Assembly (NCBI RefSeq): GCF_000092105.1
Contig: NC_014148.1
Span: 2,490,001-2,522,000, forward strand
DNA from: Planctopirus limnophila DSM 3776
GTDB taxonomy: Bacteria > Planctomycetota > Planctomycetia > Planctomycetales > Planctomycetaceae
Reading direction: 5' to 3'
Length of the DNA stretch: 32,000 nucleotides
Below are positions 2,398 to 31,991 of the stretch, piece by piece. The translations under genes were made by a program, and so were the position numbers. The first letter of the stretch is position 1. Every line of letters begins with the position of its first letter. The notes under the pieces were generated by a model that was not told the origin of the DNA, did no database searches, and was given only the letters and a program-made list of their open reading frames with translations.

Positions 2398-2410
2398 CAG
2401 CAGTCAACGG

Positions 2411-2452
2411 CCGGGAACATTCTCGCTCATGAACTTTGAGAATGTTCTCCGG
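2411..2452 (+). terminator. Intercistronic stem-loop after the MCP gene (possible attenuator or weak terminator; no U-tract)
   Basis: CCGGGAACATTCTC (2411-2424) pairs with GAGAATGTTCTCCGG (2438-2452) with one bulged A and a 13-nt loop. It starts 14 nt after the MCP stop. The following sequence CGGATTTGAC is not U-rich. Confidence 0.3.
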
Positions 2453-2557
2453 CGGATTTGACTGACTCTGCCATCTTGCAAAAGTCGATGACCAGGCGAT
2501 TGAAATACAGGCTTATCCGAGAAACGGGATACTTGCTGCCCTGAAAAGGTCTGCTCT

Positions 2558-2922
<365 letters not shown>

Positions 2923-2926
<4 letters not shown>

Positions 2927-4913: not shown

Positions 4914-5395
4914 CTGTCGTTCACATTGGTGAAACGCTGAGTGATCGTGGAGACTTTTTCCACACACATTTCGCATGATGATGTTCGCTGAATGCCTTGC
5001 TTGCGGCCTGTGTATGAGGCTCGCGGGCAAGCGTGTCATCGGTTCGTTCGCCCGTTCTGATGAAGCGGGAAATGGGCTGAGTGACAGTTCATGCTGCCAT
5101 CAATTCGAACGATTCGCTCGTTACTTCAAGAATGGAGAATTCACCACGAAGGTCGCGAAGAGCACGAAAGTGGAGGACGTTGAGTTGGGCATGAGTTCGG
5201 AGTCGTTTTTCGGTTTTCTCAACGCAGAGTTAATGCCTGCGTCCGTCACCCGCGGTTCAATCCCGTAGCGGCGCTAAATTCTAATGTGCTCTCGATTCAC
5301 TTTTTCGAGAAGTTTGCCATGCAAATATTTCACAAAGTCGGATATTCTAAGTTAAGTTGTTTGTGGTCATTCGTGGTTCAGTAAAAGGGTGATTC

Positions 5396-7096: not shown

Positions 7097-7164
7097 TGGT
7101 GGATCTTTGGGCAGGTTGAAGTTTCTCTCCACGTTGATGCGTCAAATCGCTGTGCCTCAAATGA

Positions 7165-7200
7165 AGATCACCCGGCAAGCTATGGCTTACCGGGTGATCT
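7165..7200. terminator. Stem-loop between convergent genes (candidate bidirectional terminator)
   Basis: AGATCACCCGG (7165-7175) and CCGGGTGATCT (7190-7200) are perfect complements. The stem extends inward by 4 more pairs around a TATG loop. It lies between the stop at 7096 (+) and the stop at 7243 (-). No strong U-tract on either strand. Confidence 0.5.
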
Positions 7201-7242
7201 GAATCTCAGTACTCAAAATTCTTCGTTAAGAATCAATTCGGG

Positions 7243-8769
7243 TTAGTAGTTCCACTCAACACCGAAGCTCCAGGCTTGTGTCCAGAACGTGCTTCGGCTG
7301 TCACCGATGGTGGTTTGGAGTGGGGCACCCCGCCAGACGATATTCTCTTCTGGCCGGTAAACCTCTCCCAGCATGGTGAAGGTATAACCAAACTGGAACT
7401 GAGCCTGTTCGAAGAACGCCATGCGTTTAATCAGTGGAACATAACTGAGAAGTGGTGCTCTCAGCAGGACCGATTGTTCGAGCATGGGCGACACTATGGT
7501 GGTCGTATCGGAATCGTTGAAGACCTGATCCACACCTGTCGCGGGAGGCACGTTTCCTGAACCCGTCTGATTGAAGATGTTTTTATATTCGATCGATCGT
7601 TTCGAGTGGTTGGCCAGGAGACCGAACTTTGTATTCGAGATGATCTTGAATTTGTCTTTCCCCAGATCAATCCGGAAGCCGACTTCGGGACCCGCAAACT
7701 GCGATTGAACGACCGACCGGAGAGTTGAGTCCAGCAGCAGAACATCGGTGGGATTATCCGGAGCGATAATCGCCGCTGGGCGTGGTCGGCCAGTGGTGGT
7801 TACAACGGCGAGGTCAGTCGTCCCCACCGTATAATTCAAACCACTATCGACACCATGAAAGCCAAATGTTTCACGTAAACCGAAGTAGCGAATCCCGTAA
7901 GTGGGCCGGATACGGAATCCATCTCCCTCTTTCCAGGGATTGGCCATACCACCAACATTCGCCCCATAAAACTGACTGGTGTGGTTGATCTCGAACAACA
8001 GATCGTACTTTTGAACACCGGTATTGTTGGCGTTATCAAGGTTCGTATCACCATCAAACAGCGGGAGAGCACCCACAATCTGCAATCTTTGTGTGATTGG
8101 AATTGTATAGCTGGGTGTTGTGGTCACAGAAGTGGGCGTCGGAGTCGCGATACGCTGTTCGCCCGTCGCACCTTCATCCAGGAAGAAGCCTGACAAAGTC
8201 CAACCACTTTCGTCTGCCTGCTCGCCTTCGAGAGTTAAGCGAATACCACCCGAAGTCGCGTCATTCAGAACGCCGGTATAGGTGAATGGAGTGATGTTAC
8301 TCGTCGTTGCACCTGTTCCGGTCCCTGTACCAGTTCCCGTCCCGGAAGTAGTTGTGGGGCGATAGATTGGCAGGATGCCTTCAGAACCCATCAGTCGATT
8401 ATTGGGTTTCTTGTAGACCCCATAGAGCCCTTCGACAGTGAAGGACATTTGTGATGGCCCCCACTTCGAGTTATCAAACCAGAAGCCGTTTTCCTGCTGA
8501 ATCTGCTGGAAAGGGGGCCCCTCAAAGGGAGAAACTGCCGGCCAGGGGTTCATCCCCGGCTGGAAAGATGGAGGTGCCATTCCCGGCCCATACCCTTCCG
8601 GCGCATATCCCCCAGGCATGGGCTGGTAGCCTGCCGAAGGATAGTAGCCGCTCAAATCCGGGTTCATGGGACCATCTTGTCCCATGGTGACCGAGCCCGA
8701 CGCCAGCATCAGCCCGCCAAGCAGGTATTTGAAGCCGCGAAGTTTGTTAAACCAGTGCCGTGTCTGCAT
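7243..8769 (-). CDS. Outer-membrane beta-barrel protein, planctomycete BBP7-like porin family (tentative)
   Basis: ORF 7243..8811 trimmed to ATG 8769 (MQTRHWFNKLRGFKYLLGGLMLASGSVTMGQDG = signal peptide). A Pro/Gly/Tyr/Met-rich low-complexity segment and a TSGTGTGTGTGTGATTS run are followed by about 300 aa of alternating beta-strand-like sequence. It ends in the OMP-type aromatic terminus WSFGVEWNY. Confidence 0.75.
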   Translation of the reverse strand: MQTRHWFNKLRGFKYLLGGLMLASGSVTMGQDGPMNPDLSGYYPSAGYQPMPGGYAPEGYGPGMAPPSFQPGMNPWPAVSPFEGPPFQQIQQENGFWFDNSKWGPSQMSFTVEGLYGVYKKPNNRLMGSEGILPIYRPTTTSGTGTGTGTGTGATTSNITPFTYTGVLNDATSGGIRLTLEGEQADESGWTLSGFFLDEGATGEQRIATPTPTSVTTTPSYTIPITQRLQIVGALPLFDGDTNLDNANNTGVQKYDLLFEINHTSQFYGANVGGMANPWKEGDGFRIRPTYGIRYFGLRETFGFHGVDSGLNYTVGTTDLAVVTTTGRPRPAAIIAPDNPTDVLLLDSTLRSVVQSQFAGPEVGFRIDLGKDKFKIISNTKFGLLANHSKRSIEYKNIFNQTGSGNVPPATGVDQVFNDSDTTTIVSPMLEQSVLLRAPLLSYVPLIKRMAFFEQAQFQFGYTFTMLGEVYRPEENIVWRGAPLQTTIGDSRSTFWTQAWSFGVEWNY

Positions 8770-9142
8770 CAGATCGTCCCTGACGATGCACCGTAAATTG
8801 AAGCGAGGCAACCACCGTTGCTTCCGCTGCTCATCGGCGAATGCCGCCGATAATGAACCATCGCGCTGGATGGGCCTGCCGGTAGTATCGGTTCGGTAAC
8901 TTGGCAGACTGTATCGATTGTGACTTTGGTAGCGGGAAAACCGGTTCTGTCGCGTTTAACGACCAGCAACTTTCGCCATTCGAGCTTGGAATTCCTGCGG
9001 CTGATCAGCCTCAGGCGACTTTTACCGGTGTCTGGCGACGTCTGCCCAAAGGGACTTGAAGTATGTCCTCTCCGGAAATCACTGGATGCAAAGCATGCCC
9101 AGAGCCGGGAAGAATCGTGACTTTCCTATCTGACGAGCGGAT

Positions 9143-10546
9143 TTACGACATCATCAGATGACGCTCGAAGCTGATACCGAACTTCTTCATCTTCTTGTAG
9201 AGCGTGGTGCGGTTAATCCCTAAGGCTTCAGCCGTCAATTGCCGGTTCCACCCATGTGATTCCAGCGCATCGATAATGAGCTGCTTTTCGGGAGAGGCCA
9301 GCGCCGTTTTCAGGCTTGATCCCGCAGAGACATTCGTGACGGCCCCCAGCAAGGCAACCGGTTCATCGCGGCGCAAGTTTTCTGGCAGATCCTGCAGGCC
9401 AATGACAGAGCCCTTACACAGAACGACAGCACGTTCGACAACATTCACCAGCTCTCGAACATTCCCTGGCCAACGATAACGCGCCATGGCAGAGAGTGCC
9501 TGCTCACTGAAACCGGTCACATTCTTGCCTGTCTGTGAGACAAATTCCTTCAGGTAGTGCTCGGCCAACAGGGGAATATCACTGATGCGTTCGCGCAACG
9601 AAGGCTGTGTCAAAGTCACCACGTTGATTCGATAGTACAGATCCTGGCGGAACTCACCCTTGGCGACCGCCTCTTCGAGATCGACATTGGTCGCCAGAAT
9701 CAGCCGGACATCGACTTTGTGGGTTTTGTTTCCACCGACCGCTTCAAACTCGCGGTCCTGGAGCACACGCAGAAGTTTGACCTGCAAACTCGGCGACGCC
9801 GTCGCAATTTCATCGAGGAACAATGTTCCACCATTGGCCTGCAGGAATTTCCCTGCTCGATCGTGCGAGGCCCCGGTAAATGCACCCGCCACGTGGCCGA
9901 AGAGTTCACTCTCCAGCAGAGTATCGGGCAGGGCCCCGCAGGCGACCTCCACAAAGGGCTTGTCTCGACGATTACTGAGTTGATGAATGGCTCGGGCAGT
10001 GAGTGTCTTCCCGGTTCCGCTTTCGCCAAGCACAAGCACGGTCGTGCGCGTGTCGGCGACACTTTCAATAATGTCGTACATCTTGAGCATGCGATAATCA
10101 TGCCCGATAATGTTTGATAGACCGAATCGATCATTGAGTTGCTGCTTGAGCTGCCGATTCTCAGCGACAATTTCCCGCTTGCCTAGTGCGCGCTGGATGG
10201 AGAAGTTCAACTCTTCATCGATCACAGGCTTGGTGAGGTAGTCAAACGCACCCAGCCGGATCGCATCCACAGCGCTTTCAATCGTGCCATAGCCCGTCAG
10301 CAGAATGATTTCCGTATCCGGGACAGCTTTGTTGGCCCATTCGAGGACAGCAAAGCCATCTTCATCGGGAAGATTGACATCACAGATCACGATGTCGAAG
10401 CGAAACTCCTTCATACGGGCCATGGCATCCCGTGCGGTGAAAGAAGTCTCTGTCCGATGTCCCAGGCTGCGCAGATAATCGGCCATCGATTCCGCGAGCT
10501 GACGGTCATCATCCACGACAAGCAGGGATCCTTGAGTCATCGACAT
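9143..10546 (-). CDS. Sigma-54-dependent response regulator (NtrC family enhancer-binding protein)
   Basis: 467 aa. Receiver ([24 protein letters not shown]). AAA+ sigma-54 interaction domain (Walker [15 protein letters not shown] loop in [25 protein letters not shown]). C-terminal Fis-type HTH ([20 protein letters not shown]). GGAG lies 6 nt upstream of ATG 10546. Confidence 0.9.
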
Positions 10547-10864
10547 TCTCTACTCCAGCACTCTATCTCAAAAGGAGGCATGGCTTCATCAGGAAGAATG
10601 CTCGCTGCATTTTCAGCGAACACATCACCTGCCGGAAGCTGGTTGGTGGATTCAAACATCAGTCGAGAGCGGAGCATGTCGAGGGTATGCAAACCTAGGT
10701 TACAGGTTGTACAGCGTCAACAAATTCTCACGTCACTCAGTCGCTTTCACGAAACAAACCACTCGATTTTCCAACAAGCAAGGCAACAGATGCACCAACA
10801 AGTCACCATTCGTTCCAGGGGTACCACATGAATGATCAACGTTTGGTTGCTTCCGCATTACCGA

Positions 10865-11803
10865 TCACGGCTTATTCAGCAGTTGATCCATCATCTTGAT
10901 GGCAGCAGGGCCGACCAGCACTACGAAGATGCCTGGAAAAATAAAAATCACCATGGGAAACAGCATTTGTACGGCTGTTTTTTGAGCCTTCTCTTCGGCA
11001 ATTTGACGCCGCTTAACACGCATGGAATCTGACTGCACGCGTAATGCCTGGGCGATGGAAGAACCAAACTTATCGGCCTGAATCATGATGGCCACGAGTG
11101 CCTTCACATCATCCACACCTGTCCGCACTCCCAGATCATGCAGCATGTCCCGACGGTTTCGTCCCATCTGTAGCTGCAGGTTACACATCGCCAGTTCGCC
11201 GCAAATCTCGGGCGCCGTATCCTTCAATTCTTCGGCCACACGCCGCAAGCCGGCATCTAATCCCAGACCGGCCTCGACGCAGACGACCAGCAGATCCAGC
11301 ACATCGGGCAGTTGCAGAAATATCGCCTGTTTTCGCTTACTGATGAGATAAGCCAGAACACCTTCCGGGAGATAAAAACCGGCACCAGCAGCAATGATTA
11401 ATGTCGTCAAACCGGCTTGAGTTGTCCCGTAGCGGTACATTCCCAACCCACCACCCAAAACCAGGCCCACGACCAGGCAAACGGTCTTGATGGCCAGATA
11501 AATCATGGGTGCCTGAGGGGAATGAAAGCCGGCATTCGCCAGGCGAATTTTCAATTGGCTTTGTTCCAGCTCCGACTTAGGTTCCAACGCCTTCGACAGA
11601 GCCGGTGCGGCTTTCTCAAGAAGGTTGGACATGCCATTTTTCTGTCCTCGCTGCTGTTCTCTCAACAAGGGATTGTTGAACTCATCCAGTCGCTGGCTGG
11701 CACGACTCTGCTCCCGGCTGAATATCTGCAAAGCTGCAAACACAGCCAACGTGATCGAGGCAAAGATTGCCAACGGGACAATCGTAGCGAAATCAATCAT
11801 CAT
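10865..11803 (-). CDS. tadC: Tad/Flp pilus assembly inner-membrane platform protein TadC (T2SS-F family)
   Basis: ORF from TTG 11812 trimmed to ATG 11803, with GAGG 10 nt upstream. N-terminal TM helix, central and C-terminal TM helices, and a T2SSF-type cytoplasmic domain (LPDVLDLLVVCVEAGLGLDAGL...). It is the third gene after tadA and tadB. Confidence 0.85.
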   Translation of the reverse strand: MMIDFATIVPLAIFASITLAVFAALQIFSREQSRASQRLDEFNNPLLREQQRGQKNGMSNLLEKAAPALSKALEPKSELEQSQLKIRLANAGFHSPQAPMIYLAIKTVCLVVGLVLGGGLGMYRYGTTQAGLTTLIIAAGAGFYLPEGVLAYLISKRKQAIFLQLPDVLDLLVVCVEAGLGLDAGLRRVAEELKDTAPEICGELAMCNLQLQMGRNRRDMLHDLGVRTGVDDVKALVAIMIQADKFGSSIAQALRVQSDSMRVKRRQIAEEKAQKTAVQMLFPMVIFIFPGIFVVLVGPAAIKMMDQLLNKP

Positions 11804-11907
11804 GATTGGCAAACCTCAAACGGGGCTCGAACAGAACTTCTTGAGTGACAATATCCGACAAAATGACCAATGGTTGATGGAGAACTCTCCAGATAACCTG
11901 CGAATGT

Positions 11908-12873
11908 TTACACTTTGATGTCGATAATTTTCTTGATGGCGACGGCGCCCAGAATCTGCATCACGATCCCGACAGCAATCATCTTTTTGCCGAGGTCGGT
12001 GGTGAACAGCACCATGACGTAATTGGGATTCAGGTAGTAGACCGCAAAGAAGATGGCAATCGGCATGGCCATCAGCACAGCACCACTTAAGCGGCCTTCA
12101 CCTGTTAAAGCCTGAACTGTTCCGAGGATTTTGAATCGCTCGCGGATCACTTCACTGATCTTGTCGAGAATCTCGGCCAGGTCACCGCCGGTTTGCCGTT
12201 GAATTGCCACAGCTGTCACAAAAAATTTGTAGTCCAGGTTGGGCATTTTCTTGAGGGACTCTTTCAAGGCACTTTCGACGGGAACGCCAAGATTTTGAGT
12301 TTCATAAGCACTGCGAAAGACTTGTGAAATCGGTGGAGGCATTTCATCGCAGACCAGATGCAGACCTGATGCCAGGCTGTGACCTGATCGCAATGCCCGG
12401 CCCATCAATTCCATGGCATCGGGGAGCTGTTTGGCAAACTGCTTGAATCGCTTCTTGCGTCGAAACGACAGCCAGATGAATGGAAACGTGGATGTCAGCA
12501 AGCCAAATAACGGGAGGAGTGGAGTGGGCGCATTGCCAATCAATCCCAGAGCGGCACCCACAATTCCACAGGAAACACTGATCAGCAAAAACGATCTTAA
12601 ACCAATCGGAGAATCGGCCTGTTCAAAAAAGAGACCGATCCCGCGAAATCGCTCCATCAGCAATCCCAGTGCACCATCAATGGTCTGAGAGCTGAGCTTA
12701 ACGAGTTCATCTTTGGTGATCTTGGTTTGCTCTTCACTGGTTTTCAGACCGGCAAGTACATCCAGACGGTCTTCTGCACGTTTGGAATTTCCACCCATGA
12801 GCAGTGAAGCGATGGCACCCACGAAGGCAGAGACACCCACGAAAACTGTCAGCGATATCATTAGTGGGCTCAT
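11908..12873 (-). CDS. tadB: Tad/Flp pilus assembly inner-membrane platform protein TadB (T2SS-F family)
   Basis: ORF 11908..12918 trimmed to ATG 12873, preceded by GAGGGA. T2SSF-type domain (LPDAMELMGRALRSGHSLASGL...IQRQTGGDLAEIL) flanked by TM helices. It lies immediately downstream of tadA. Confidence 0.85.
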   Translation of the reverse strand: MSPLMISLTVFVGVSAFVGAIASLLMGGNSKRAEDRLDVLAGLKTSEEQTKITKDELVKLSSQTIDGALGLLMERFRGIGLFFEQADSPIGLRSFLLISVSCGIVGAALGLIGNAPTPLLPLFGLLTSTFPFIWLSFRRKKRFKQFAKQLPDAMELMGRALRSGHSLASGLHLVCDEMPPPISQVFRSAYETQNLGVPVESALKESLKKMPNLDYKFFVTAVAIQRQTGGDLAEILDKISEVIRERFKILGTVQALTGEGRLSGAVLMAMPIAIFFAVYYLNPNYVMVLFTTDLGKKMIAVGIVMQILGAVAIKKIIDIKV

Positions 12874-13018
12874 AAGACAATTCCCTCGGAGAAACTCAAT
12901 CACGCACGAAATGAGCAAACAAACCTTTGTTCAACAGTCTGGATCGAAGCTTGTTCAAGACAGTCCGTATTTTCAGTCGGGCCAATCAATGGTTCACCGG
13001 CGGAACAATTTCTGATCG

Positions 13019-14356
13019 TTACCGCCCACCCAGTGCTCTTTGATGAAAAATGTTCGCTGGCAAACGAATACCAGCCTGCTCCAGTCGAGACATAAACGAT
13101 GGCCTGACTCCCGTGGACTCAAAGTGGCCAAAAGCTCGACCAGTCTCATCAATTCCATCCTGCACGAAGACGAAAATGTCCTGCATCACCACGGTGTCCT
13201 GCTCCATGTTGAGCACTTCTGTAATATGTGTAATTTTGCGTGGCCCACCCTGTAGACGATTCGTCTGAATAATCAGATCGACTGCCGCTGCAAACTGCTG
13301 GCGGAGTGCTCGCAGAGGAATTTCAACACCACCCATCGCGATCATCGTTTCCAGTCGCGAGACAGCATCGCGCGGTGTATTGGCGTGGATCGTGGTGAGT
13401 GACCCTTCGTGACCAGTATTCATGGCCTGGAGCATGTCGAGAGCTTCGGCTCCACGGCATTCCCCAATAATCACTCGGTCGGGCCGCATACGCAGTGCGT
13501 TTTTCACAAGATCAGTCGCTGTGATTCGTCCCTTACCTTCGATATTGGCAGGACGTGTTTCAAGCCTCAGCACATGTTCCTGTTGAAGCTGAATTTCGGC
13601 AGCGTCTTCAATCGTGATGACACGCTGATCATTCGGAATGAAGCTCGACAAAGTATTAAGAAGTGTGGTTTTACCAGAACCCGTACCTCCACTGATGATG
13701 CAGTTAAGACGAGCCTTCATGGCTCCTTCTAAAAGCATGACCATCTCGGGTGTGAAGGCACCGAATTTCAGCAGGTCTTCCAGAGCCAGTGGCTTGGAAC
13801 CAAATCGACGAATTGTGAGCGAGGGGCCATCCAGGGCCAGTGGAGGAATGACAGCGTTGAGTCGCGAGCCATCTGGAAGACGGGCATCGACCATCGGGCA
13901 GGTTTCATCCACACGACGCCCCACGCGGGAGACGATGCGATCGAGAATCTGCAGAAGATGATCGTTATCGCGGAAGGTGACTTCCGACTTTTGAATCCGT
14001 CCACCTTTTTCGATGAAGACATTCTTTGGGCCGTTGATCATGATGTCAGCGACGCCGGGTTCTTTGAGAAGAATCTCCAGCGGACCAAAGCCAAAGGTTT
14101 CATCAAGAACTTCTTCGATCAGCCGTTCACGTTCGGAACGATTGAGCAAGGGGTTCTCGGTGTCGCATAAGTGCTCGACAACCAGGCGGATTTCTCGGCG
14201 AAGAGTATCACCTTCCAGGTCTCCCAGGCGGGAGAGATCGAGTTTTTCCACGAGTTTGCCGTGGATTAATCGCTTGAGTGCTTCAAAATCCTGCTCCGAG
14301 GATAAACCGCTGCGGCTACGTGGGGGATTGAAAGTGGCAGGTGGCATTTGACGCAT
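13019..14356 (-). CDS. tadA: Tad/Flp pilus assembly ATPase CpaF/TadA
   Basis: Walker A GGTGSGKTTLLN, VITIEDAAE (Asp box/Walker B), GECRGAEALDMLQAMNTGHEGSLTTIHAN (His box), about 445 aa as in CpaF. Start ambiguous among GTG 14359, ATG 14356 and ATG 14347; GGAG sits 11 nt before 14347. Confidence 0.9.
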   Translation of the reverse strand: MRQMPPATFNPPRSRSGLSSEQDFEALKRLIHGKLVEKLDLSRLGDLEGDTLRREIRLVVEHLCDTENPLLNRSERERLIEEVLDETFGFGPLEILLKEPGVADIMINGPKNVFIEKGGRIQKSEVTFRDNDHLLQILDRIVSRVGRRVDETCPMVDARLPDGSRLNAVIPPLALDGPSLTIRRFGSKPLALEDLLKFGAFTPEMVMLLEGAMKARLNCIISGGTGSGKTTLLNTLSSFIPNDQRVITIEDAAEIQLQQEHVLRLETRPANIEGKGRITATDLVKNALRMRPDRVIIGECRGAEALDMLQAMNTGHEGSLTTIHANTPRDAVSRLETMIAMGGVEIPLRALRQQFAAAVDLIIQTNRLQGGPRKITHITEVLNMEQDTVVMQDIFVFVQDGIDETGRAFGHFESTGVRPSFMSRLEQAGIRLPANIFHQRALGGR

Positions 14357-14554
14357 CACTCCGGAATCTAGAGACAGCTTCCCAAGATTGGCAGACTGAT
14401 CCGACCATCAGTCATAGGAAACTTAGCTCAGAAATTCCGTGTGTGACGATCAGTTGCCAGAAATCATCAAATGCTGTTTTTCAGAGACAGGTCCATCACC
14501 ATTGATGGCGAATTTCATCACTTCAAAAAGAGGGAGTTCATCGAACCGCTACCC

Positions 14555-22415: not shown

Positions 22416-23375
22416 ATGAACAACTTCAAGACGCGCAACATGACGCAATTCCAACCCGGAATTCTGGCATTCATCAAATCGAACGTGACTCTGGCTTTGC
22501 TCATTGGAAGTCTTATTCTCAGTCCGATTTCAGTCATGGCCGGTGGGATTGATGATCAACCTCGAATCATTCTCTGGCCTGATGGAGCACCTGAGGCCAA
22601 AGCCGGCGCTCCTGCCGACATCCCCTACTTATCCATTTACAAAGCCGATCCCTCCAAAGCGACTCGATGTGCCATTGTCGTCTGTCCTGGCGGTGGTTAT
22701 GGCGGGCTCGCCAAATCCCACGAAGGCCACGAAATTGGCCAGTGGCTGAATGAACTGGGAATCAGTGCTTACGTTCTCACCTACAGACACGCCCCGGCTT
22801 ACAAGGATCCTGTCCCACGTCTGGATGTCCAGAGAGCGATTCGTCTTGTTCGATCTCTGCACTCTCCACAAGCTGGGATGCACGATGCCGATAAAGTGGG
22901 TGTGCTGGGTTTTTCTGCCGGTGGACATCTGGCATCGACCGCTGCCACCCAGTTTGATCTGGGGCTATTGGATTCATCGGATACGATTGACCGGTTAAGT
23001 TCACGGCCTGATTTTGCGATTCTGTGCTATCCCGTCATTTCCATGGAACAGGGCGTGACTCATGCCGGTTCGCGAAGAAATCTCCTGGGCGAAACTCCTG
23101 CCGATGAAGATGTGCTCCGGATGTCCAACGACTTGCGCGTCACTTCACAGACACCACCGACCTTCCTCTGGCATACTCAAGAGGATGCAGCAGTTCTTCC
23201 TGAAAACAGCCTGCGATTCTACTCCGCGATGGTGAAACACCGCGTTCCTGGCGAACTTCACATTTTCCAGAAAGGCCGCCATGGGATTGGCCTCGGGAAG
23301 GGGCAGGGAACCGCTGCCGCTTGGCCAGAACTTTGCGCCAACTGGCTGAATTCATTGGGAATGCTCAAAAAGTGA
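22416..23375 (+). CDS. Exported alpha/beta hydrolase (acetyl esterase / BD-FAE-like)
   Basis: ORF 22146..23375 trimmed to ATG 22416 (MNNFKTRN...LALLIGSLILSPISVMAGG signal). CPGGGYGG box, nucleophile elbow GFSAGGHLA, WHTQEDAAV, GRHGIGLG. Confidence 0.8.
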   Translation: MNNFKTRNMTQFQPGILAFIKSNVTLALLIGSLILSPISVMAGGIDDQPRIILWPDGAPEAKAGAPADIPYLSIYKADPSKATRCAIVVCPGGGYGGLAKSHEGHEIGQWLNELGISAYVLTYRHAPAYKDPVPRLDVQRAIRLVRSLHSPQAGMHDADKVGVLGFSAGGHLASTAATQFDLGLLDSSDTIDRLSSRPDFAILCYPVISMEQGVTHAGSRRNLLGETPADEDVLRMSNDLRVTSQTPPTFLWHTQEDAAVLPENSLRFYSAMVKHRVPGELHIFQKGRHGIGLGKGQGTAAAWPELCANWLNSLGMLKK

Positions 23376-23391
23376 TTGCCGCATTCACCAT

Positions 23392-23419
23392 CTTTGCCTC
23401 GAACACGTTCGAGGCAAAG
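23392..23419. terminator. Palindromic stem-loop between convergent genes
   Basis: CTTTGCCTCGAAC (23392-23404) / GTTCGAGGCAAAG (23407-23419), 13-nt perfect arms. It starts 17 nt after the stop at 23375. No clear U-tract. Confidence 0.4.
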
Positions 23420-23448
23420 CAATCTCACTCAGCAGAAATCATATTCTG

Positions 23449-23485
23449 ACAGTGGACTGACGAAAATGCTTTGTCAGTCCACTGT
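23449..23485. terminator. Stem-loop terminator shared by convergent hydrolase (+) and folP (-)
   Basis: ACAGTGGACTGAC (23449-23461) / GTCAGTCCACTGT (23473-23485) with an 11-nt loop. It is followed on the plus strand by TTCATTTCACTTTTA and lies 13 nt beyond the folP stop. Confidence 0.6.
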
Positions 23486-23497
23486 TTCATTTCACTT

Positions 23498-24373
23498 TTA
23501 CTGAAGCGGTTGTTCTGGATCGATGTTCAAAGCCACGGCACTGTAAGCCAGCAGGCTATCCCTATGTGCAGCCACATCATGGATCCTGAGAAAATCGACT
23601 CCCAATTGTGCCAGAGCCAGACTGACACCTAACGTTCCGTATTCTCTTTCGTTGACATCACGCCCGGTAAGTTGCTTAAGAAACCTTTTCCGAGAATGAC
23701 CAACGAGCAACGGTCGCCCCAGTTTTTGAAAGTGCGGTATGGCTCGCAATAGCGAGAGATTATGTGCCGCCGTTTTGCCAAACCCGATTCCGGGGTCAAG
23801 ACAGATCGATTCGGCTGAAATCCCGCCGTCGATTAACTGGTTGATTCTTCGCTCAAAAAAATCAAACACCTCCTGCACAACATCTGTGTAGACCGGATTG
23901 TGCTGCATGGTTTGCGGAGTGCCTTGAATGTGATTGATGATCACGCCGGCCTTGTAGTCGCGAGCGACGGCCACCATCTCCACATCAAACGTTAACCCGG
24001 AAATATCGTTGATGATATTGGCACCAACCTCCAGGGCTTTCCTGGCCACCTGAGCTTTGGTCGTATCAACGGAAATTGCTTGCCGGGAATGCTTTCGGAC
24101 TTCGCGAATCACAGGAATGACGCGTCTGATCTCCTCGTCCGCGGCGACGGGTAATGAACCGGGGCGTGTCGATTCGCCACCGATATCCAGTATCTCCGCA
24201 CCATGACTGGCGAGATCAAGAGCCTGCTGAACAGCAGCGTCTGTCGAGAAAAACGCTCCTCCATCAGAAAAACTGTCGGGAGTGACATTCACAATTCCCA
24301 TCAGTCGAGGCTGACGACTTTTCTCGAAGGTGTGCTCGCAACAACACCATCGCACGTCAGAAGAAGTGTACAT
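23498..24373 (-). CDS. folP: Dihydropteroate synthase
   Basis: GIVNVTPDSFSDGG, DIGGESTRPG, ISVDT, INDISG and DPGIGFGKT motifs. Candidate starts are GTG 24388, ATG 24379 and ATG 24373. GAGGA sits 8 nt before 24373, which I chose. Confidence 0.9.
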   Translation of the reverse strand: MYTSSDVRWCCCEHTFEKSRQPRLMGIVNVTPDSFSDGGAFFSTDAAVQQALDLASHGAEILDIGGESTRPGSLPVAADEEIRRVIPVIREVRKHSRQAISVDTTKAQVARKALEVGANIINDISGLTFDVEMVAVARDYKAGVIINHIQGTPQTMQHNPVYTDVVQEVFDFFERRINQLIDGGISAESICLDPGIGFGKTAAHNLSLLRAIPHFQKLGRPLLVGHSRKRFLKQLTGRDVNEREYGTLGVSLALAQLGVDFLRIHDVAAHRDSLLAYSAVALNIDPEQPLQ

Positions 24374-24617
24374 ATCCATCGTCCTCACGATTTAGGCGGG
24401 CGTGAGAGGGCCATCAACTCTCAGCACACATCTTATCATAACAGCCTATTTTCCAAAGACTTACGATATTCTCTGACAAATAACAAATCATCTCGGAAGA
24501 TCGTTTCTCTGGCCCCACTGCTCTCCACAATAAAATTGTCATCAACGGCACGACAATATCATCCCAGACAATGTGTACCTCCCATTCATCCTAAACGTGT
24601 TTTTCGGTTCATTTCAT

Positions 24618-24645
24618 TTGACATCCGTATCCTTCCCGCTATCCT
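24618..24645 (+). promoter_or_regulatory. Candidate sigma-70-type promoter for the Cys/Ala/Pro-repeat gene
   Basis: TTGACA (24618-24623), a 16-nt spacer, then TATCCT (24640-24645), inside an AT-rich 437-nt divergent intergenic region. It would give a leader of about 160 nt. Planctomycete promoter rules are poorly known. Confidence 0.25.
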
Positions 24646-24810
24646 GCTTTGGCGTAACCGGAAGAGTTATCCAAAGTTACTCAATGTCAAAATGTTTCGC
24701 TCGAAAAGTCATTGATTGGCAGATTTTGCTGATCGACGAGCGAGTCACCAGGGGGGTCGGGGCTGTCTGCACCGACAAATCTCGTTCAACGTCTGAGGAG
24801 GTCTGTGAAG

Positions 24811-25443
24811 ATGGCTGGTATGTTCAAGTCTATGGCGGCTGCTGCCGTCGCTGTTGTCCTGTGTTGTGCAAGCGCTGCCGACGCCGGTCTGTTCCGTCGT
24901 TCAAGCGATTGCTGTGCTCCAGCTCCTAGCTGCGCCGCACCTGCACCAAGCTGTGCAGCTCCTGTTGCCTGTGCACCTAGCTGCGCTGCTCCAGTTGCTT
25001 GTGCTCCTGCTTGCGAACCAACCCCTTGCTGCAAAGTGAAGAAGGTTCGTTGCAAGAAGAAGCGTTCCAGCTGCTGCCCAAGCGAATGTGCACCAAGCTG
25101 TGCAGCTCCTAGCTGCGCCGCTCCAGTCGCCTGTGCTCCTACATGTGCCGCTCCTGCTCCAGCTGCTTGTGCACCAGCACCAGTCGCTTGTGCTCCAGCT
25201 GCTCCAACATGTGCTGCACCAGCTCCTGCCGCCTGTGCACCAGCTCCATGTGCTCCAACATGTGCAGCTCCTGCTGTTGCATGTGCACCTGCCGCTGCTC
25301 CATGTGCTCCAGTAGCACCATGTGCCCCAGTGGCTCCATGTGCTCCAACATGTGCTGCACCAGCAGCACCTGTCGAAGCTGCTCCAGCCGCCCCTGTTGC
25401 TCCAGCTCCTCCAGCCGAAGCACCAGCACCAGCTGCTAACTAA
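24811..25443 (+). CDS. Secreted Cys/Ala/Pro-repeat protein of unknown family
   Basis: GAGGAGG (24795-24801) lies 9 nt before ATG 24811. Signal peptide MAGMFKSMAAAAVAVVLCCASAADA. The rest is CAP and (S/T)CAAP repeats with 29 Cys, split by CCKVKKVRCKKKRSSCC, and ends in a Cys-free Ala/Pro tail. A canonical terminator lies 55 nt downstream. All other frames here are low-complexity shadows. Confidence 0.8.
   Translation: MAGMFKSMAAAAVAVVLCCASAADAGLFRRSSDCCAPAPSCAAPAPSCAAPVACAPSCAAPVACAPACEPTPCCKVKKVRCKKKRSSCCPSECAPSCAAPSCAAPVACAPTCAAPAPAACAPAPVACAPAAPTCAAPAPAACAPAPCAPTCAAPAVACAPAAAPCAPVAPCAPVAPCAPTCAAPAAPVEAAPAAPVAPAPPAEAPAPAAN
24910..25440 (+). repeat. Degenerate in-frame short repeats (coding low complexity: TGY-GCN-(GCN)-CCW units)
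   Basis: ACATGTGC(N)GC recurs at about 25141, 25207, 25258 and 25345, with many TGTGC(T/A)CC(A/T) units. The units are conserved as peptides but differ at synonymous positions. Confidence 0.8.
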
Positions 25444-25498
25444 ATTTGTGCTGGTTGGTTGATCTGCAAAGATCGCCAATTCACATGAATTCGTAATC

Positions 25499-25534
25499 GA
25501 GTGGGGAGTCTCAATGGCTCCCCACTCTTTTTTT
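25499..25534 (+). terminator. Rho-independent terminator of the Cys/Ala/Pro-repeat gene
   Basis: GAGTGGGGAG (25499-25508) / CTCCCCACTC (25518-25527), GC-rich 10-bp stem with a 9-nt loop, followed by TTTTTTT (25528-25534). Confidence 0.85.
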
Positions 25535-25795
25535 ATGCCAGCAACGACCCCGAAGCATGAGACGCAACGACGTGTGTTGCGGCAGTGAATGACGAATCTC
25601 AGTTCAGTTTCACTGTTGAAAACGAACAAGATCTGATTGCCCAAAGCAGCGTCAAGTTCGGCCCACAATACTCTCGATCAGATGAGAGCGAGTCTGTTGG
25701 ATAACTCACTTCGCCAACCCGCACGAGAACTTTCGGTCCGCGAAATCTTGATTGCTGCCAATTCAGTCACTCGACTTCTCTTGGCAAAAGCCGCA

Positions 25796-26047
25796 TCAAT
25801 GCGATTCTTTTCCAGATTCTGCCAGAAACCGCTGAAGATCGGCCTCGCCTGCGACGATCGTCCGGCAAAACCCCGTCGGCGTTCGATCATACCGGATCTG
25901 AGCTACCTCAGAAGCATGGGAATGTAACCAGGAGATGAACTCAGACCTGGCAGCATCGCTGGATGAAGCGGTCTCATGACTCATCACCGTGCGGATTTCT
26001 GTGACGAGAGTATCCAGTCGGCTGTCAAAGCCATTCGGACTAGGCAT
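25796..26047 (-). CDS. Hypothetical small protein, possibly translationally coupled to bioB
   Basis: 83-codon ORF whose ATG (26047) overlaps the bioB stop by 8 nt (ATGCCTAG). Codon usage resembles its neighbours. No motif I recognise. A second ORF in another frame (25678..25890) overlaps its 3' end. Confidence 0.35.
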   Translation of the reverse strand: MPSPNGFDSRLDTLVTEIRTVMSHETASSSDAARSEFISWLHSHASEVAQIRYDRTPTGFCRTIVAGEADLQRFLAESGKESH

Positions 26048-27194
26048 GACAACCTGCCGCTGTTTTCTCAGGGGTTACACAGGTCGAAGTTCCCTCGCAG
26101 CAATTGGTTTGGGGCTGACTTTCCTGAACTGCCTTCCATGCGAGAAAAGAGTCATGATCACCGATCACGACTTCCATCCCCAGGTCGGCTACCATCTTGA
26201 AATCATCTTCAGCCGGCTGCCCTTTAGTCGTGAGATAGTCGCTGACGAACATACTGTTGGCAGCATACAGGCTCATCGCCTGCATCGACCTCAGATTCAC
26301 TTCACGTCCGCCGGAAACTCTCAGTTCCACAGCCGGATTGGCAAAGCGGAACAGACACAAAGCTCTCAAGCACTGGCGGGGATTCAATTCCTGCCGAGCT
26401 TCGAGAGGAGTACCATCGATGGCATGCAGAAAATTGACCGGGGTCGATTCCACACCCAGTTCCCGCAATTCAAAAGCGACATCAACCAGATCGTTCTGGG
26501 TTTCACCCATGCCCACAATCAGGCCACTGCATAGCTCCATACCGGCTTCACGAACCACCTTCAGTGTTTCCAGCCTGTCATCATAGGTATGAGTCGTGCA
26601 GATCTTGTCGTAAAACTCGCGACCTGTGTTCAGGTTATGGTTGATCCGATCAACCCCGGCTTCTGCTAATGTTTTGGCCTGATCGGGCGATAACAGACCC
26701 AGGCAGCAGCAGATATGCAGTCCATAGGTCTCTTTGATTTTCTTGACAACGCTGGCGACATGCCCTACTTCTCGGTTGGAAGGGCCGCGTCCTGAAGCCA
26801 CGATGCAATAGGTTCGGGCCTTGGCTTCGACAGCTCGCGCTGCTCCTTCCATGAGCTTGGCTTCATTCAGCATGGCATACTTAGGAATTTCAGTTTCGGC
26901 AATCTTGGATTGAGAGCAGTAACCACAATCCTCTGGGCAGAGACCACTCTTGGCATTTTTCAGGAAGTAAAGCTGAACTTTATTCCCGAAATACTTACGC
27001 CGCACTTTGTAAGCAGCTGCCAGCAGATCCACGATCTCATCGTCTTCTGAATCCAGAATGGCTAGAGCTTCCTCACGGGTCAGCACGTGCCCGCCCATCA
27101 CTTTGTCAGCAAGATCACTCCAGCAAATCTTTGTGGAGCAGTTTTCTTTCGAAGACCCAGTTGCAGACATGGAAACACTCTCGACAGCGGACAT
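26040..27194 (-). CDS. bioB: Biotin synthase
   Basis: Radical-SAM CPEDCGYCSQS (CxxxCxxC), INHNLNTGREFY, TYDDRLETLKVVREAGMELCSGLIVGMGET. Start uncertain among GTG 27233, ATG 27194 and ATG 27170. Unusual Cys-rich C-terminal tail (NCCEGTSTCVTPEKTAAGCHA). Confidence 0.9.
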   Translation of the reverse strand: MSAVESVSMSATGSSKENCSTKICWSDLADKVMGGHVLTREEALAILDSEDDEIVDLLAAAYKVRRKYFGNKVQLYFLKNAKSGLCPEDCGYCSQSKIAETEIPKYAMLNEAKLMEGAARAVEAKARTYCIVASGRGPSNREVGHVASVVKKIKETYGLHICCCLGLLSPDQAKTLAEAGVDRINHNLNTGREFYDKICTTHTYDDRLETLKVVREAGMELCSGLIVGMGETQNDLVDVAFELRELGVESTPVNFLHAIDGTPLEARQELNPRQCLRALCLFRFANPAVELRVSGGREVNLRSMQAMSLYAANSMFVSDYLTTKGQPAEDDFKMVADLGMEVVIGDHDSFLAWKAVQESQPQTNCCEGTSTCVTPEKTAAGCHA

Positions 27195-27422
27195 ACTGAT
27201 TACCCGTCTTAGGAACTCACGTCGGCTGGTCACACTGACCAGTCCGTGAAGACTTCCCGAGCCTGTTATGGTTGTTGAATGATGATCAATTCAGCCGATC
27301 CTCACGAGGATCAAGCTGACGAAGCTCGCCAATGGAGAGCTCGCCCTTCACATTTTCCATCAGAGTGTAACTGGTTGCTCTCAGACAATGAATCCACGAA
27401 CCAGTCCGGCTGGCACTGTCGT

Positions 27423-28721
27423 TCATTTTGACGGGCTGCGGCTCGATTCGCGAATGGCGTAAAGATTGGAAAACGTTCTCAGATAAAGAGTTCCGTTCGA
27501 AATCACTGGTGAAGACGAAATCGATTCCGGGATCTCGTTTTCAGCAACAACTTCAAATTTCCGACCTGTCTTTACGACGGTCACTTTGCCATCGCGTGCC
27601 GTGAGATAGATATGGCCATCGGCATACACAGGCGACGCCCGGTGTCTTTGCCGATGTGTCCGCTCAAAGTAGACCTCTTTGCCCGTATCCGCTTCCAGCA
27701 CATTGAGATTCCCGTCGTGCATGCACAGGTAGACCAGCCCATCCAGAATCAGCGGTGAAGGAACATCAGGTGTTCTTTCCCATTGCCACAGATGGGCTTC
27801 GGTTTTGAACAGGTCTTTGCCGGGCTTGGGCTTAATGCCCATCACCGGGCCTCGTTTTGCCGTTGGAATGACCAGTAAATCCCCAGCAGCAACGGGTGAT
27901 GCCACAAACCGAAGTGTGCGATCGTATTTCGCAGTGGGGTTCAGTCCGCTCATCCGCCAGACTTCACTCCCATCGGTCAGCCTGTGCCCTACGGTGTAGT
28001 CGGCTCCGTGGGTCACCAGCACGGTTCCATCACCTTCTCCAAAAAATACGGGAGAGGCATAAGAATGTTCGTTTTCATCGCTGCCATCGCTCGGTCGATC
28101 GACAGCCCATTTTTCTGTGCCGGTCAGTGCATCCATAGCCACGATGCGTGCTTCACGGGTTTTCGGATTCCCATCACCATGCAGCAGTTGGAGGTAAAGC
28201 ACACCATTTCGTAAGAGTGGTGTGGAACTCATGCCAAATTGAATGTTGAACTTCCCATATCGATCCTGGACATTGAACTTCCAGACTTCTTTGCCGTCCA
28301 CAGTCAGGCAGGCCAGCGTTCCATCACCAAAAAATGCCCAGACACGCTGGCCATCAGTCACAGGAGAAGGAGAGGCTGCGTTTCCTTCGTCTCCGCGTGC
28401 AGTCAGAGTGCTATTGGATACCGTCTTCACCCATTGCACAGCACCATCTTTGGTACTCAGCCCCAAGACCTGAAGATCTCCACTCTCGGTGACCGTGGTG
28501 AGGAAAATCTGATGGCCCCAGACGACAGGCGTCGAACCCGCTGGCCCTGGCAGGGGAGTTTTCCACAAGACGTTCTTGTCCGCAGACCAAGTGGTCGCAA
28601 TATTTTTTTCGGAAGAGATTCCGTTATTGAGAGGCCCACGCCAATTCGGCCAGTCTTCTGCAACAAGTGAAGCACCGCTCAGCAGCAGGGCAACACTTGC
28701 CAGAGAGCCGAGTTTTGCCAT
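27423..28721 (-). CDS. Exported PQQ-like beta-propeller repeat protein
   Basis: ORF 27423..28835 trimmed to ATG 28721 (MAKLGSLASVALLLSGASLVAEDWPNWRGP). It combines a signal peptide, the DWPNWRGP motif common in planctomycete PQQ-like propellers, and repeated G..Y..D/G..V.A.D..TGKE.W blades. Confidence 0.8.
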   Translation of the reverse strand: MAKLGSLASVALLLSGASLVAEDWPNWRGPLNNGISSEKNIATTWSADKNVLWKTPLPGPAGSTPVVWGHQIFLTTVTESGDLQVLGLSTKDGAVQWVKTVSNSTLTARGDEGNAASPSPVTDGQRVWAFFGDGTLACLTVDGKEVWKFNVQDRYGKFNIQFGMSSTPLLRNGVLYLQLLHGDGNPKTREARIVAMDALTGTEKWAVDRPSDGSDENEHSYASPVFFGEGDGTVLVTHGADYTVGHRLTDGSEVWRMSGLNPTAKYDRTLRFVASPVAAGDLLVIPTAKRGPVMGIKPKPGKDLFKTEAHLWQWERTPDVPSPLILDGLVYLCMHDGNLNVLEADTGKEVYFERTHRQRHRASPVYADGHIYLTARDGKVTVVKTGRKFEVVAENEIPESISSSPVISNGTLYLRTFSNLYAIRESSRSPSK

Positions 28722-30824: not shown

Positions 30825-31991
30825 ATGGGTGGAGGCGCACCTGCTGCGGCAGCCAAGTTCAGCACGATCCGATTGGGAGCGGGGGTCATCAAGGACTTCC
30901 CGATTAACAAACTGTTTCGGGCCATGGTCGATCTCAACAGCTCCGACTTGCACTTGCAGGTGGGCAAGCCCGCGATTCTCCGCATCAAAGGGGCATTGAA
31001 ACCTCTGGATATGCCTCCCATCACCGAAGAGCAGATGAAGGAACTCTGCTGGCCGCTGATGGACGAACGCAACCAGGAGATCTTCATGAACACGGGCGGT
31101 GCCGACTATGCCCATGTCGTCGAGTACAAGGGTGAGCCGTGGCGTTTCCGCGTGAACATGTTCATCCAGACTGGGAAGGTAGGGATGGTCAGTCGTAAGA
31201 TCGAGCGGTCGATCCCCAACTTCGAGGGGTTGTACCTCCCGCCGATCATGGAGGATCTCTGCCGGTACGACCAGGGGATGGTGCTGCTCGCCGGCGTGAC
31301 GGGTTCGGGCAAATCGACCACCATCGCGTCGATGCTCGACTGGATCAATCACAACTTCGGCAAGCACATCCTGACGATCGAAGATCCCGTCGAATTCGTG
31401 TATACGGCCGACAAAAGCCTGATCAACCAGCGGGAAATCGGCCCCGATGTCTGCGATTTCCACACCGCGATGAAGCATGCCGTGCGGCAAGACCCCGACA
31501 TCATGCTGGTGGGTGAGTTGCGCGACCGGGACACGTTCGAGACCGCCATCCATGCGGCAGAAACGGGCCACCTTGTATACGGCACGATCCACGCCTCGTC
31601 GGCTCCCTCGACGATCGGCCGTATTCTCGACCTGTTCCCGCAAAGCATGCACTCGGCGATCCGTTCGTCGATGGGCTTCAACATGAAGGCGATCGTCGCC
31701 CAGAAGCTGCTCCCCACGATTCGCGACAAACCCAAGCGCGTCCCCATCTGCGAGGTAATGCTGTTCAACGGCACCGTCCGCAAGCTGATCCTCGAAGAGC
31801 AGGATGAAAAACTGCCCGCCGCCATGCGGATCGGCAAGGCCGACGGCATGCAGTTGTTCAACGACAGCCTGTACCACTTCATCACGCAGGAATACGTGAG
31901 CCGGGCGGAGGCTTTTGAGATCAGCCCCAACGTGGAAGAGCTCAAAATGATGCTCAAGGGGATCGATGTGAAGGGCCCCGGGATTCTATAA
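30825..31991 (+). CDS. pilT: Type IV pilus retraction ATPase, PilT family
   Basis: SDLHLQVGKPAILRIKG N-domain, Walker A GVTGSGKSTT, ILTIEDPVEFVY, VGELRDRDT, HLVYGTIHASS His box, and a GTVRKLILEE segment at the position of the PilT AIRNLIRE motif. AAGGGA RBS. About 30-aa Gly/Ala-rich N-terminal extension. Confidence 0.9.
   Translation: MGGGAPAAAAKFSTIRLGAGVIKDFPINKLFRAMVDLNSSDLHLQVGKPAILRIKGALKPLDMPPITEEQMKELCWPLMDERNQEIFMNTGGADYAHVVEYKGEPWRFRVNMFIQTGKVGMVSRKIERSIPNFEGLYLPPIMEDLCRYDQGMVLLAGVTGSGKSTTIASMLDWINHNFGKHILTIEDPVEFVYTADKSLINQREIGPDVCDFHTAMKHAVRQDPDIMLVGELRDRDTFETAIHAAETGHLVYGTIHASSAPSTIGRILDLFPQSMHSAIRSSMGFNMKAIVAQKLLPTIRDKPKRVPICEVMLFNGTVRKLILEEQDEKLPAAMRIGKADGMQLFNDSLYHFITQEYVSRAEAFEISPNVEELKMMLKGIDVKGPGIL

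Follow-up and report, generated by a model that had tools for sequence, protein, structure and literature searches.

Plim_1926 of Planctopirus limnophila and an undescribed family of exported cysteine-proline repeat proteins

The planctomycete Planctopirus limnophila DSM 3776 carries a gene whose product appears to be exported and consists largely of short cysteine-alanine-proline repeats, which raises the question of whether so repetitive a reading frame encodes a functional protein and, if so, what that protein does outside the cytoplasm. We examined the gene within a 32-kb stretch of DNA (32,000 nucleotides; the whole stretch is called the window here, and all coordinates refer to it). Along the window lie cheB and cheR and, further on, genes for a GH57 glucanotransferase, GSIII, a DUF606 protein, folP, the repeat gene, an 83-amino-acid open reading frame (ORF), bioB, a PQQ/WD40 protein and a pilT-like gene, and this order agrees with that of Plim_1911 to Plim_1933 (Supplementary Data 6, PMC10632474). 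The repeat gene corresponds to Plim_1926, annotated as a 'conserved hypothetical protein', and its insertion index from transposon-directed insertion-site sequencing (TraDIS), 0.224684, equals 142/632, which is consistent with the 633-nucleotide length of Plim_1926. We find that Plim_1926 is subject to strong selection as a protein and that its product defines a family with a conserved layout; as to function, we tentatively favor a disulfide cross-linked thread at the cell envelope or in a surrounding matrix.

A repeat protein under purifying selection and its family

Evidence that the reading frame is translated comes from NCBI record CP036299.1, one of six public contigs that encode the same protein; it can be compared with the window over 17 kb, at 94% DNA identity. 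The two copies of Plim_1926 differ at 20 nucleotides, every one of which lies at a third codon position and is synonymous. The corresponding counts in neighboring genes are 43 synonymous and 20 nonsynonymous differences for folP, and 49 and 8 for bioB. We conclude that Plim_1926 is a real gene under strong purifying selection and that its sense reading frame is established.

The encoded protein has 210 amino acids, of which 152 are alanine (78), proline (43) or cysteine (31), and it contains neither tyrosine nor histidine; its lysines and arginines are almost all in the linker, which leaves trypsin few usable peptides. By inspection, its N-terminus shows the basic n-region, hydrophobic region and A-x-A site of a Sec type I signal peptide: the segment MAGMFKSMAAAAVAVVLCCASAADA has lysine in its n-region and, after a hydrophobic core, ends in ADA (positions -3 to -1), with GLF next, and conservation of these features in the family points the same way. 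Cleavage between ADA and GLF would leave a mature chain of about 185 amino acids, and 29 of the 31 cysteines lie downstream of the ...SAADA site. A script count found 13 CAP and 9 (S/T)CAAP units. Cysteine doublets occur at residues 34/35, 73/74 and 88/89, and the remaining cysteines are spaced 4-8 residues apart (Table 1). An earlier reading made from the sequence alone (the sequence-only reading) had reported a signal peptide followed by 29 cysteines, 9 (S/T)CAAP and about 13 CAP units, a spacing of 4-8 residues, the basic linker KVKKVRCKKKRSS and a cysteine-free tail; our counts reproduce all of these, with the spacing holding outside the CC doublets. It had also described two repeat blocks that each open and close with a CC doublet, which is accurate for the first block; the second block has a CC doublet at its start and none at its end.

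The arrangement of the cysteines is far from chance and is no by-product of composition, as judged from 100,000 shuffles of the protein. Cysteine followed by one or two alanines and then proline occurs 22 times, compared with a shuffle mean of 3.4 and a maximum of 11. The spacings CxC and CxxC are absent, compared with a shuffle mean of 7.7, and a count this low was reached in 6 of the 100,000 shuffles. The widest gap between cysteines is 8, and none of the shuffles matched this evenness. The underlying DNA repeats are imperfect overall (periods of 9-30 nucleotides with 68-86% matches), and they are old.

Structure prediction supports the view that this regular chain does not fold into a domain. 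An AlphaFold model of the window protein, based on the family alignment, has a mean predicted local distance difference test (pLDDT) score of 55 and contains a helix in the signal peptide (residues 3-25) and nothing else. A model of P0004, which represents a second subfamily, has a mean pLDDT of 44 and an extra helix of low confidence in its basic linker. The mature chain is thus modeled as non-globular, with no predicted fold.

Relatives of the protein are numerous and unannotated. A single-sequence search returned 18 unannotated relatives, and a profile search of 1.84 billion representative proteins returned 180 matches at E<=1e-3 and 46 at E<=1e-10, among which long matches with TTLAP-type repeats are spurious. 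We examined 158 sequences (157 matches and the window protein) and defined the family by an A-x-A/G(L)F junction, in which cleavage precedes the glycine and the leucine is optional, together with a cysteine content of at least 10%. This definition includes 113 of the 158 sequences, which gives a family size of at least 113 clusters at 50% identity, and 96 of the 113 begin the mature chain with GLF. Across the 113 members the median cysteine content is 20.6% and the median mature length is 132 amino acids. CC accounts for 29.5% of cysteine spacings, CxC for 3.2% and CxxC for 3.1%. The cysteine count is even in 57 members and odd in 56, and this random parity indicates that no closed scheme of intramolecular disulfides is conserved.

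The layout of these proteins is modular: a signal peptide is followed by GLF and basic or histidine residues, a Cys-Pro block, a basic segment and a second block. The repeat units vary between members (CCAPAPxCC, CAAPxACAP, CCEPEPxCC and CAAPCGPxC are among them), as do the basic segments (KVKKVRCKK, KMPKLRMPKL, GWFKKL, GLFxxLKAK and WDLExRKNxWL), and 93 of the 113 members have at least five lysines or arginines within a 15-residue window. The window protein shows all three hallmarks, namely the A-x-A/GLF junction, at least 10% cysteine in proline-rich repeats and an internal basic segment. Together with P0003, P0011, P0069 and P0109, it forms a subfamily with a KVKKV-type linker and a cysteine-free AP/KP tail, unlike the other family members, in which the second block usually ends in CC followed by asparagine, histidine or arginine. 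Where source names are given, they are all Planctomycetaceae, Planctomicrobium piriforme or planctomycete metagenome-assembled genomes, and all entries are labeled 'hypothetical'; the taxonomic distribution rests on at least five confirmed loci and a few such names. In a published survey, orthologs of Plim_1926 were present in 2 of 45 Planctomycetes and absent outside the phylum (PMC10632474).

Searches of reference collections failed to place the family. The window protein has no match in Pfam or NCBIfam at E<=10 and no sequence match in the PDB at E<=1. Searching 116 family members against Pfam yielded no YTV, metallothionein or chlamydial Omc match, and the only recurring match was Keratin_B2_2, in 4 of the 116 (best E = 1.9e-9); against NCBIfam, the same members gave sporadic low-complexity matches, none of which is meaningful. 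The statement of the sequence-only reading that the protein belongs to no recognized family is borne out by these searches, which gave no confident match to a characterized one. Taken together, these results identify an undescribed family with a conserved modular architecture, absent from both Pfam and NCBIfam.

Candidate roles of the exported chain

Among the roles that such a chain could have, we give tentative preference to one in which the product of Plim_1926 is an abundant exported protein whose chains are tied together by intermolecular disulfides, with the basic segments serving for docking. After Sec export and cleavage between ADA and GLF, the protein would form an extended, non-globular Ala-Pro thread that presents a cysteine every 4-8 residues. 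In the oxidizing extracytoplasmic space, these cysteines would form mainly intermolecular disulfides, either with other copies or with cysteine-rich envelope proteins, and the bonds between chains would produce a proteinaceous layer or matrix held together covalently. Two cationic modules (GLF-RR at the N-terminus and KVKKVRCKKKR in the center) may dock the thread on anionic membrane head groups, lipopolysaccharide or acidic polysaccharide, and the cysteine-free Ala-Pro tail could act as a flexible spacer. We infer the cross-linking, the location in an envelope or matrix, the docking by basic segments and the high expression from features of gene and protein; of these features, the perfect -35 element, the leader, the GAGGAGG sequence, the terminator and the codon bias would be typical of abundant envelope proteins.

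Known proteins offer parallels to this proposal. Keratin-associated high-sulfur and ultra-high-sulfur proteins (KAPs; Keratin_B2_2, PF13885) are, like the Plim_1926 family, small, non-globular, 15-30% cysteine and built from short Cys-Pro repeats (CCxPx); the units of the window protein itself are CAP/CAAP. KAPs cross-link by intermolecular disulfides into the matrix of hair. However, KAPs are eukaryotic, intracellular and devoid of a signal peptide, whereas the Plim_1926 family has the GLF junction and basic linkers, and the window protein lacks a Keratin_B2_2 match even at the permissive threshold used. The likeness to KAPs is one of convergent composition, which makes them a functional analog and not a homolog. 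The chlamydial proteins OmcA and OmcB are also exported and rich in cysteine, and chlamydiae belong to the same Planctomycetes-Verrucomicrobia-Chlamydiae (PVC) superphylum as P. limnophila. These proteins rigidify the chlamydial envelope of elementary bodies through disulfide cross-links, and OmcB has a basic segment that binds polyanions. Neither the window protein nor any of the 116 members has a Pfam match to them. Furthermore, OmcA is a lipoprotein, whereas Plim_1926 has no lipobox by inspection (V-V-L precedes Cys18, so that position -1 is leucine and not glycine, alanine or serine), and P0003 and P0015 do not retain the signal-peptide cysteine. OmcB is a folded protein of about 60 kDa, whereas the Plim_1926 family consists of repeat threads for which no fold is predicted.

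A closer taxonomic parallel is provided by the YTV proteins of Planctomycetia (Rhodopirellula, Gemmata and Tuwongella), which share with the Plim_1926 product a high cysteine content, restriction to planctomycetes and a signal peptide. Planctomycete walls have been described as dominated by protein, and the cysteine-rich YTV proteins were found in wall preparations (PMC12673574, PMC8567305) and proposed to tune wall rigidity (PMC12673574, PMC8567305, PMC10632474). The two groups are nevertheless distinct: YTV domains are not found by Pfam in the window protein or the 116 members, and the window protein has no tyrosine. Reports place the YTV domain throughout the class Planctomycetia, whereas Plim_1926 has matches in 2 of 45 Planctomycetes (PMC10632474), and the YTV protein of P. 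limnophila appears in the list of genes that are essential and restricted to planctomycetes, whereas Plim_1926 is classed by TraDIS as non-essential (Supplementary Data, PMC10632474).

The last of these points is one of several that weigh against a cross-linked envelope thread. Plim_1926 has the highest TraDIS insertion index among its neighbors (0.2247), and since it is dispensable in culture it is not a load-bearing essential component of the wall. Its narrow range means that it cannot explain cystine-rich walls across the phylum. The histidine-rich N-termini of many homologs would suit metal binding as well, the pilT-like gene of the window is biased in the direction opposite to Plim_1926 in the GC content of third codon positions (GC3, 0.81), and we found no paper that names Plim_1926. 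Dispensability in culture combined with a protein that is unchanged between two species is typical of a function that matters outside the laboratory, for instance in stress, in attachment or in making the envelope tough.

An exported, metallothionein-like buffer is the alternative that fares best, although we consider it unlikely. The cysteines would then remain reduced or metal-bound, and their task in the periplasm or at the cell surface would be to sequester soft metals (Cu(I), Zn, Cd or Hg) or to scavenge oxidants. Metallothioneins (SmtA/BmtA and the eukaryotic proteins) resemble the Plim_1926 product in their small size, very high cysteine content, low complexity and lack of an aromatic core. 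Cysteine makes up 16-25% of the mature chain, CC doublets are common throughout the family, and many homologs have histidine-rich stretches directly after GLF (GLFHHHKS, GLFGHHKHD) or CGC or CxxxC clusters near the linker. One homolog adjoins feoAB, and non-essentiality in rich medium is what would be expected of a stress protein. However, metallothioneins are cytoplasmic and built of CxC, CxxC and CC clusters, and CxC and CxxC are the spacings that dominate true metallothioneins; the exported window protein has none of either, and each makes up about 3% of spacings across the family. Spacers of 4-8 residues stiffened by proline would also disfavor compact thiolate clusters. In addition, the window protein has no histidine, no Pfam metallothionein domain was matched by the window protein or among the 116 members, folP is the sole conserved neighbor (with no metal regulator or transporter in that position), and the promoter has the look of a constitutive one of the sigma-70 type. 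As to the choice between a buffer for metals or redox and a disulfide network, the tests lean to cross-linking, because CxC and CxxC are missing, the parity of cysteine counts is 57:56, no fold is predicted and Keratin_B2_2 matches, few as they are, occur.

We regard as somewhat less likely still a component of an extracellular matrix, stalk or holdfast, located beyond the outer membrane, in which acidic polysaccharide would be bound through the polybasic segment and a fiber or glue would harden as disulfides form. The arguments from architecture are the same as those for a cross-linked envelope protein, and by inspection the linker sequence VKKVRC fits the polyanion-binding pattern XBBXBX. 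The named cultured carriers are P. limnophila and Planctomicrobium piriforme, both of which are stalked, rosette-forming Planctomycetaceae, and dispensability in shaken liquid culture would fit a function in attachment. On the other hand, the link to a stalked lifestyle rests on these two named species, the protein lacks any signal that would take it across the outer membrane, secretion genes are not linked to it, and the Tad-like pilus genes of the window are separated from Plim_1926 by more than 10 kb and are not among the conserved neighbors.

Quite improbable is the idea that the chain is a substrate or precursor for post-translational chemistry, whether as a ribosomally synthesized and post-translationally modified peptide (RiPP), through formylglycine-type oxidation of cysteine at C-x-P, or as a secreted cationic cysteine-rich antimicrobial peptide. 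Planctomycetes are rich in sulfatases, and C-A-P is similar to the start (positions one to three) of their motif C-x-P-x-R; however, by inspection none of the 13 CAP units has arginine at +4, which leaves the C/S-x-P-x-R motif incomplete throughout. Many homologs have linkers that are both cationic and amphipathic, and membrane-active peptides can begin with GLF, but the absence of any nonsynonymous change between species is unlike an arms-race toxin. A Sec signal peptide would be atypical of a RiPP, and the conserved neighborhood includes no modifying enzyme, no immunity gene and no exporter. The sequence-only reading had considered a RiPP precursor unlikely for want of adjacent modifying enzymes, and the conserved neighbors of homologous loci, which include no such enzyme, make a RiPP unlikely on the same ground.

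That Plim_1926 is a low-complexity ORF without a functional protein, or that the true product is read from the opposite strand, is scarcely credible: the antisense frame that shares third codon positions is open for 209 codons with 19 of the 20 substitutions synonymous, and a 90-amino-acid antisense gene is annotated in CP036299.1 (L001 10329-10601, minus strand; the window counterpart, 24786-25055 on the minus strand, has 89 amino acids), but the promoter, Shine-Dalgarno (SD) sequence, ATG, signal peptide and terminator all lie on the sense strand, and more than 100 homologs keep the signal peptide, GLF junction, cysteine periodicity and basic linker in the sense frame. Upstream of the 89-amino-acid ORF, the antisense frame offers no start site, and it has no promoter, SD sequence or signal peptide; its product would be rich in alanine, glycine, histidine and glutamine, and we reject it as a shadow ORF of GCN, CCN and TGY codons. 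A further antisense ORF, 24901-25668, shows 5 synonymous differences against 33 that are nonsynonymous, and we reject it as a coding sequence. Among the findings that the sequence-only reading had named as able to undo it were expression of another frame or strand and a strain-specific low-complexity ORF. The first disagrees with the wholly synonymous divergence and the conservation of the sense frame in homologs, and the second with the common architecture that homologs keep.

Expression signals and gene neighborhood

Plim_1926 is preceded by 422 nucleotides of intergenic DNA, within which a block containing the promoter and leader is nearly identical between the two Planctopirus genomes, as is the region of the terminator; intergenic DNA outside these two parts is 78-80% identical (Table 1). 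The promoter is of a recurring type, with GTTTGAC(A/T)-N16/17-TAxxxT present 138-178 nucleotides upstream of the ATG in all five subfamily loci (the window, L008, L015, L016 and L017), and orthologs in the subfamily likewise have a GAGGAG-like SD sequence. The sequence-only reading had described the best ribosome-binding site of the window, a long upstream region of the gene's own and a textbook terminator, and had noted that the gene looks like a strongly expressed monocistronic unit. GAGGAGG is indeed unique in the window, the upstream region and the terminator (a 12-bp stem followed by seven thymidines) are as described, and a monocistronic unit with strong signals is well founded; high expression is what these signals would suggest.

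Table 1. Features of the Plim_1926 locus, with positions in the window
Feature	Position	Strand	Evidence or remark
folP (Plim_1925), Pterin_bind domain	23498-24373	-	divergent to the repeat gene
Conserved upstream block with promoter and leader	24601-24810	+	2 mismatches in 210 nt (99% identity) vs CP036299.1; adjoining 24389-24600 78%
Predicted sigma-70-type promoter, TTGACA-16 nt-TATCCT	24618-24645	+	10 of 12 consensus positions
Putative 5' untranslated region, about 160 nt	24652-24810	+	start deduced from position of -10 element
SD sequence GAGGAGG, 9 nt before ATG	24795-24801	+	sole GAGGAGG in the 32-kb window
Plim_1926 coding sequence, 210 aa plus stop	24811-25443	+	identical protein on 6 public contigs; 20 synonymous, 0 nonsynonymous differences vs CP036299.1
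Predicted Sec-type signal peptide MAGMFKSMAAAAVAVVLCCASAADA, residues 1-25	24811-24885	+	by inspection; AlphaFold helix at residues 3-25
Mature N-terminus GLFRRSSD, residues 26-33 (GLF-plus-basic module)	24886-24909	+	GLF start in 96 of 113 members, then K/R/H-rich residues
Cys repeat block 1, residues 34-74, CC...CC, 10 Cys	24910-25032	+	DNA periods 21 and 30 nt, 75-83% matches
Polybasic linker KVKKVRCKKKRSS, residues 75-87	25033-25071	+	KVKKV-type linker common to P0003, P0011, P0012, P0069, P0109
Cys repeat block 2, residues 88-184, 18 Cys, CAP/CAAP units	25072-25362	+	DNA periods 9-21 nt, 68-86% matches
Cys-free Ala-Pro tail, 26 aa, residues 185-210	25363-25440	+	AP/KP-rich tails also in P0003, P0011, P0069, P0109
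Predicted intrinsic terminator: 12-bp stem, 8 GC pairs, 5-nt loop, T7	25499-25534	+	25444-25540 99% identical to CP036299.1 vs 80% further downstream

Codon usage in Plim_1926 is strongly skewed. Its GC3 is 0.28, compared with 0.49-0.62 in most neighbors, the exception being the pilT-like gene. None of the 43 proline codons is CCC or CCG, and one of the 78 alanine codons is GCG. Each homolog uses nearly one codon per amino acid, and CCG is almost exclusive in the GC-richer genomes.

A known or clearly structured leader RNA or riboswitch was considered and rejected, since no Rfam family matches, the predicted fold of the leader (24652-24810) is not unusually stable (z = -0.84) and the leader sequence cannot be aligned across more distant orthologs. 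The Rfam E-value scan of 23000-27500 returned nothing beyond a sub-threshold match to the L20 leader, which lies over the terminator. Separately, the identity of the 210 nucleotides upstream of the ATG exceeds what a promoter and an SD sequence need, and inspection of the fold shows that the base pairs of a predicted hairpin at about 24697-24742 survive both substitutions relative to CP036299.1 in this block.

Upstream sequences also affect how other family members appear in databases. Among entries P0001-P0060, most have over-called starts that add 40-180 spurious N-terminal residues; this arises because the long upstream leaders contain no stop codons, and it hides the signal peptide from automated annotation. 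Another subfamily, with signal peptides of the type MKWTTLTAAL..., has two upstream DNA elements common to L006 8275-8480, L011 5801-6006, L012 5810-6015 and L013 5813-6018. The first, CAGGTGGAC(T/C)C, lies about 115-125 nucleotides before the ATG, and the second, AACCCCGGGAAAAGTCGAGGAGA, lies at the SD sequence. The over-called extensions include translations of these elements (for example, '..GQVDP..'), which may represent a promoter or leader element.

Conservation of gene neighborhood is limited to folP, which stands divergent beside the repeat gene in all five tail-bearing subfamily loci (those listed above for the promoter), and every other neighbor differs. Neither gene of this pair is a regulator, and no functional link between them is apparent. 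Across nine homologous loci, no modifying enzyme, protease or exporter is a conserved neighbor, and in general no gene accompanies the family. On the other side of Plim_1926, bioB is convergent, and it is the bona fide biotin synthase that the sequence-only reading took it to be, with Radical_SAM and BATS domains and an annotation as an essential biotin synthase.

We made several observations on other genes of the window. The longest ORF of bioB (26040-27233, minus strand) starts with MTSRREFLRR..., which is twin-arginine-like, and gene callers place the start 21 codons later (376 amino acids); its product carries a cysteine-rich C-terminal extension, ...NCCEGTSTCVTPEKTAAGCHA. The 83-amino-acid ORF Plim_1927 (25796-26047) shares 8 nucleotides with the end of bioB. 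The pilT-like gene Plim_1933 (30825-31991, plus strand; T2SSE domain), which has the GC3 of 0.81, is 98.3% identical to its counterpart in CP036299.1. The left half of the window (34-14359) is home to several groups of genes for motility and secretion, namely a chemotaxis set (a GAF/PAS methyl-accepting chemotaxis protein, cheB and cheR) and a Tad-like pilus set of two T2SSF genes and one T2SSE gene, together with a PAS/GAF response regulator, a sigma-54 activator and a BBP7-type porin.

Meaning for planctomycete envelopes

Cystine- and proline-rich, detergent-resistant protein material was detected chemically in envelopes of the Planctomyces group in the 1980s, and no gene was assigned to it in this lineage. 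We speculate, at a level of confidence that we would call low, that the Plim_1926 family is a bacterial counterpart of keratin-matrix proteins, which would supply either this unassigned material or the cross-linked substance of stalk or holdfast fibers, having evolved independently of the YTV and Omc proteins. Our literature search for papers on cystine and proline in walls returned mostly mentions of enzyme tests.

The YTV proteins are the only cysteine-rich wall proteins of planctomycetes assigned so far, and the Plim_1926 family represents a second, unrelated family of cysteine-rich exported proteins. That the PVC group has structural proteins that are exported and rich in cysteine is, as a general idea, not new. 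The architecture found here, a GLF-plus-basic anchor followed by a Cys-Pro thread, is simple and testable, and P. limnophila is genetically tractable, with Plim_1926 already seen to tolerate transposon insertions. If metal binding were the true function, the family would represent an unusual exported metallothionein-like protein. If cross-linking is the true function, the family would be a convergent bacterial analog of keratin-associated proteins and would provide a handle on redox tuning of envelope or appendage mechanics, as well as a minimal natural design for disulfide-curable protein materials.

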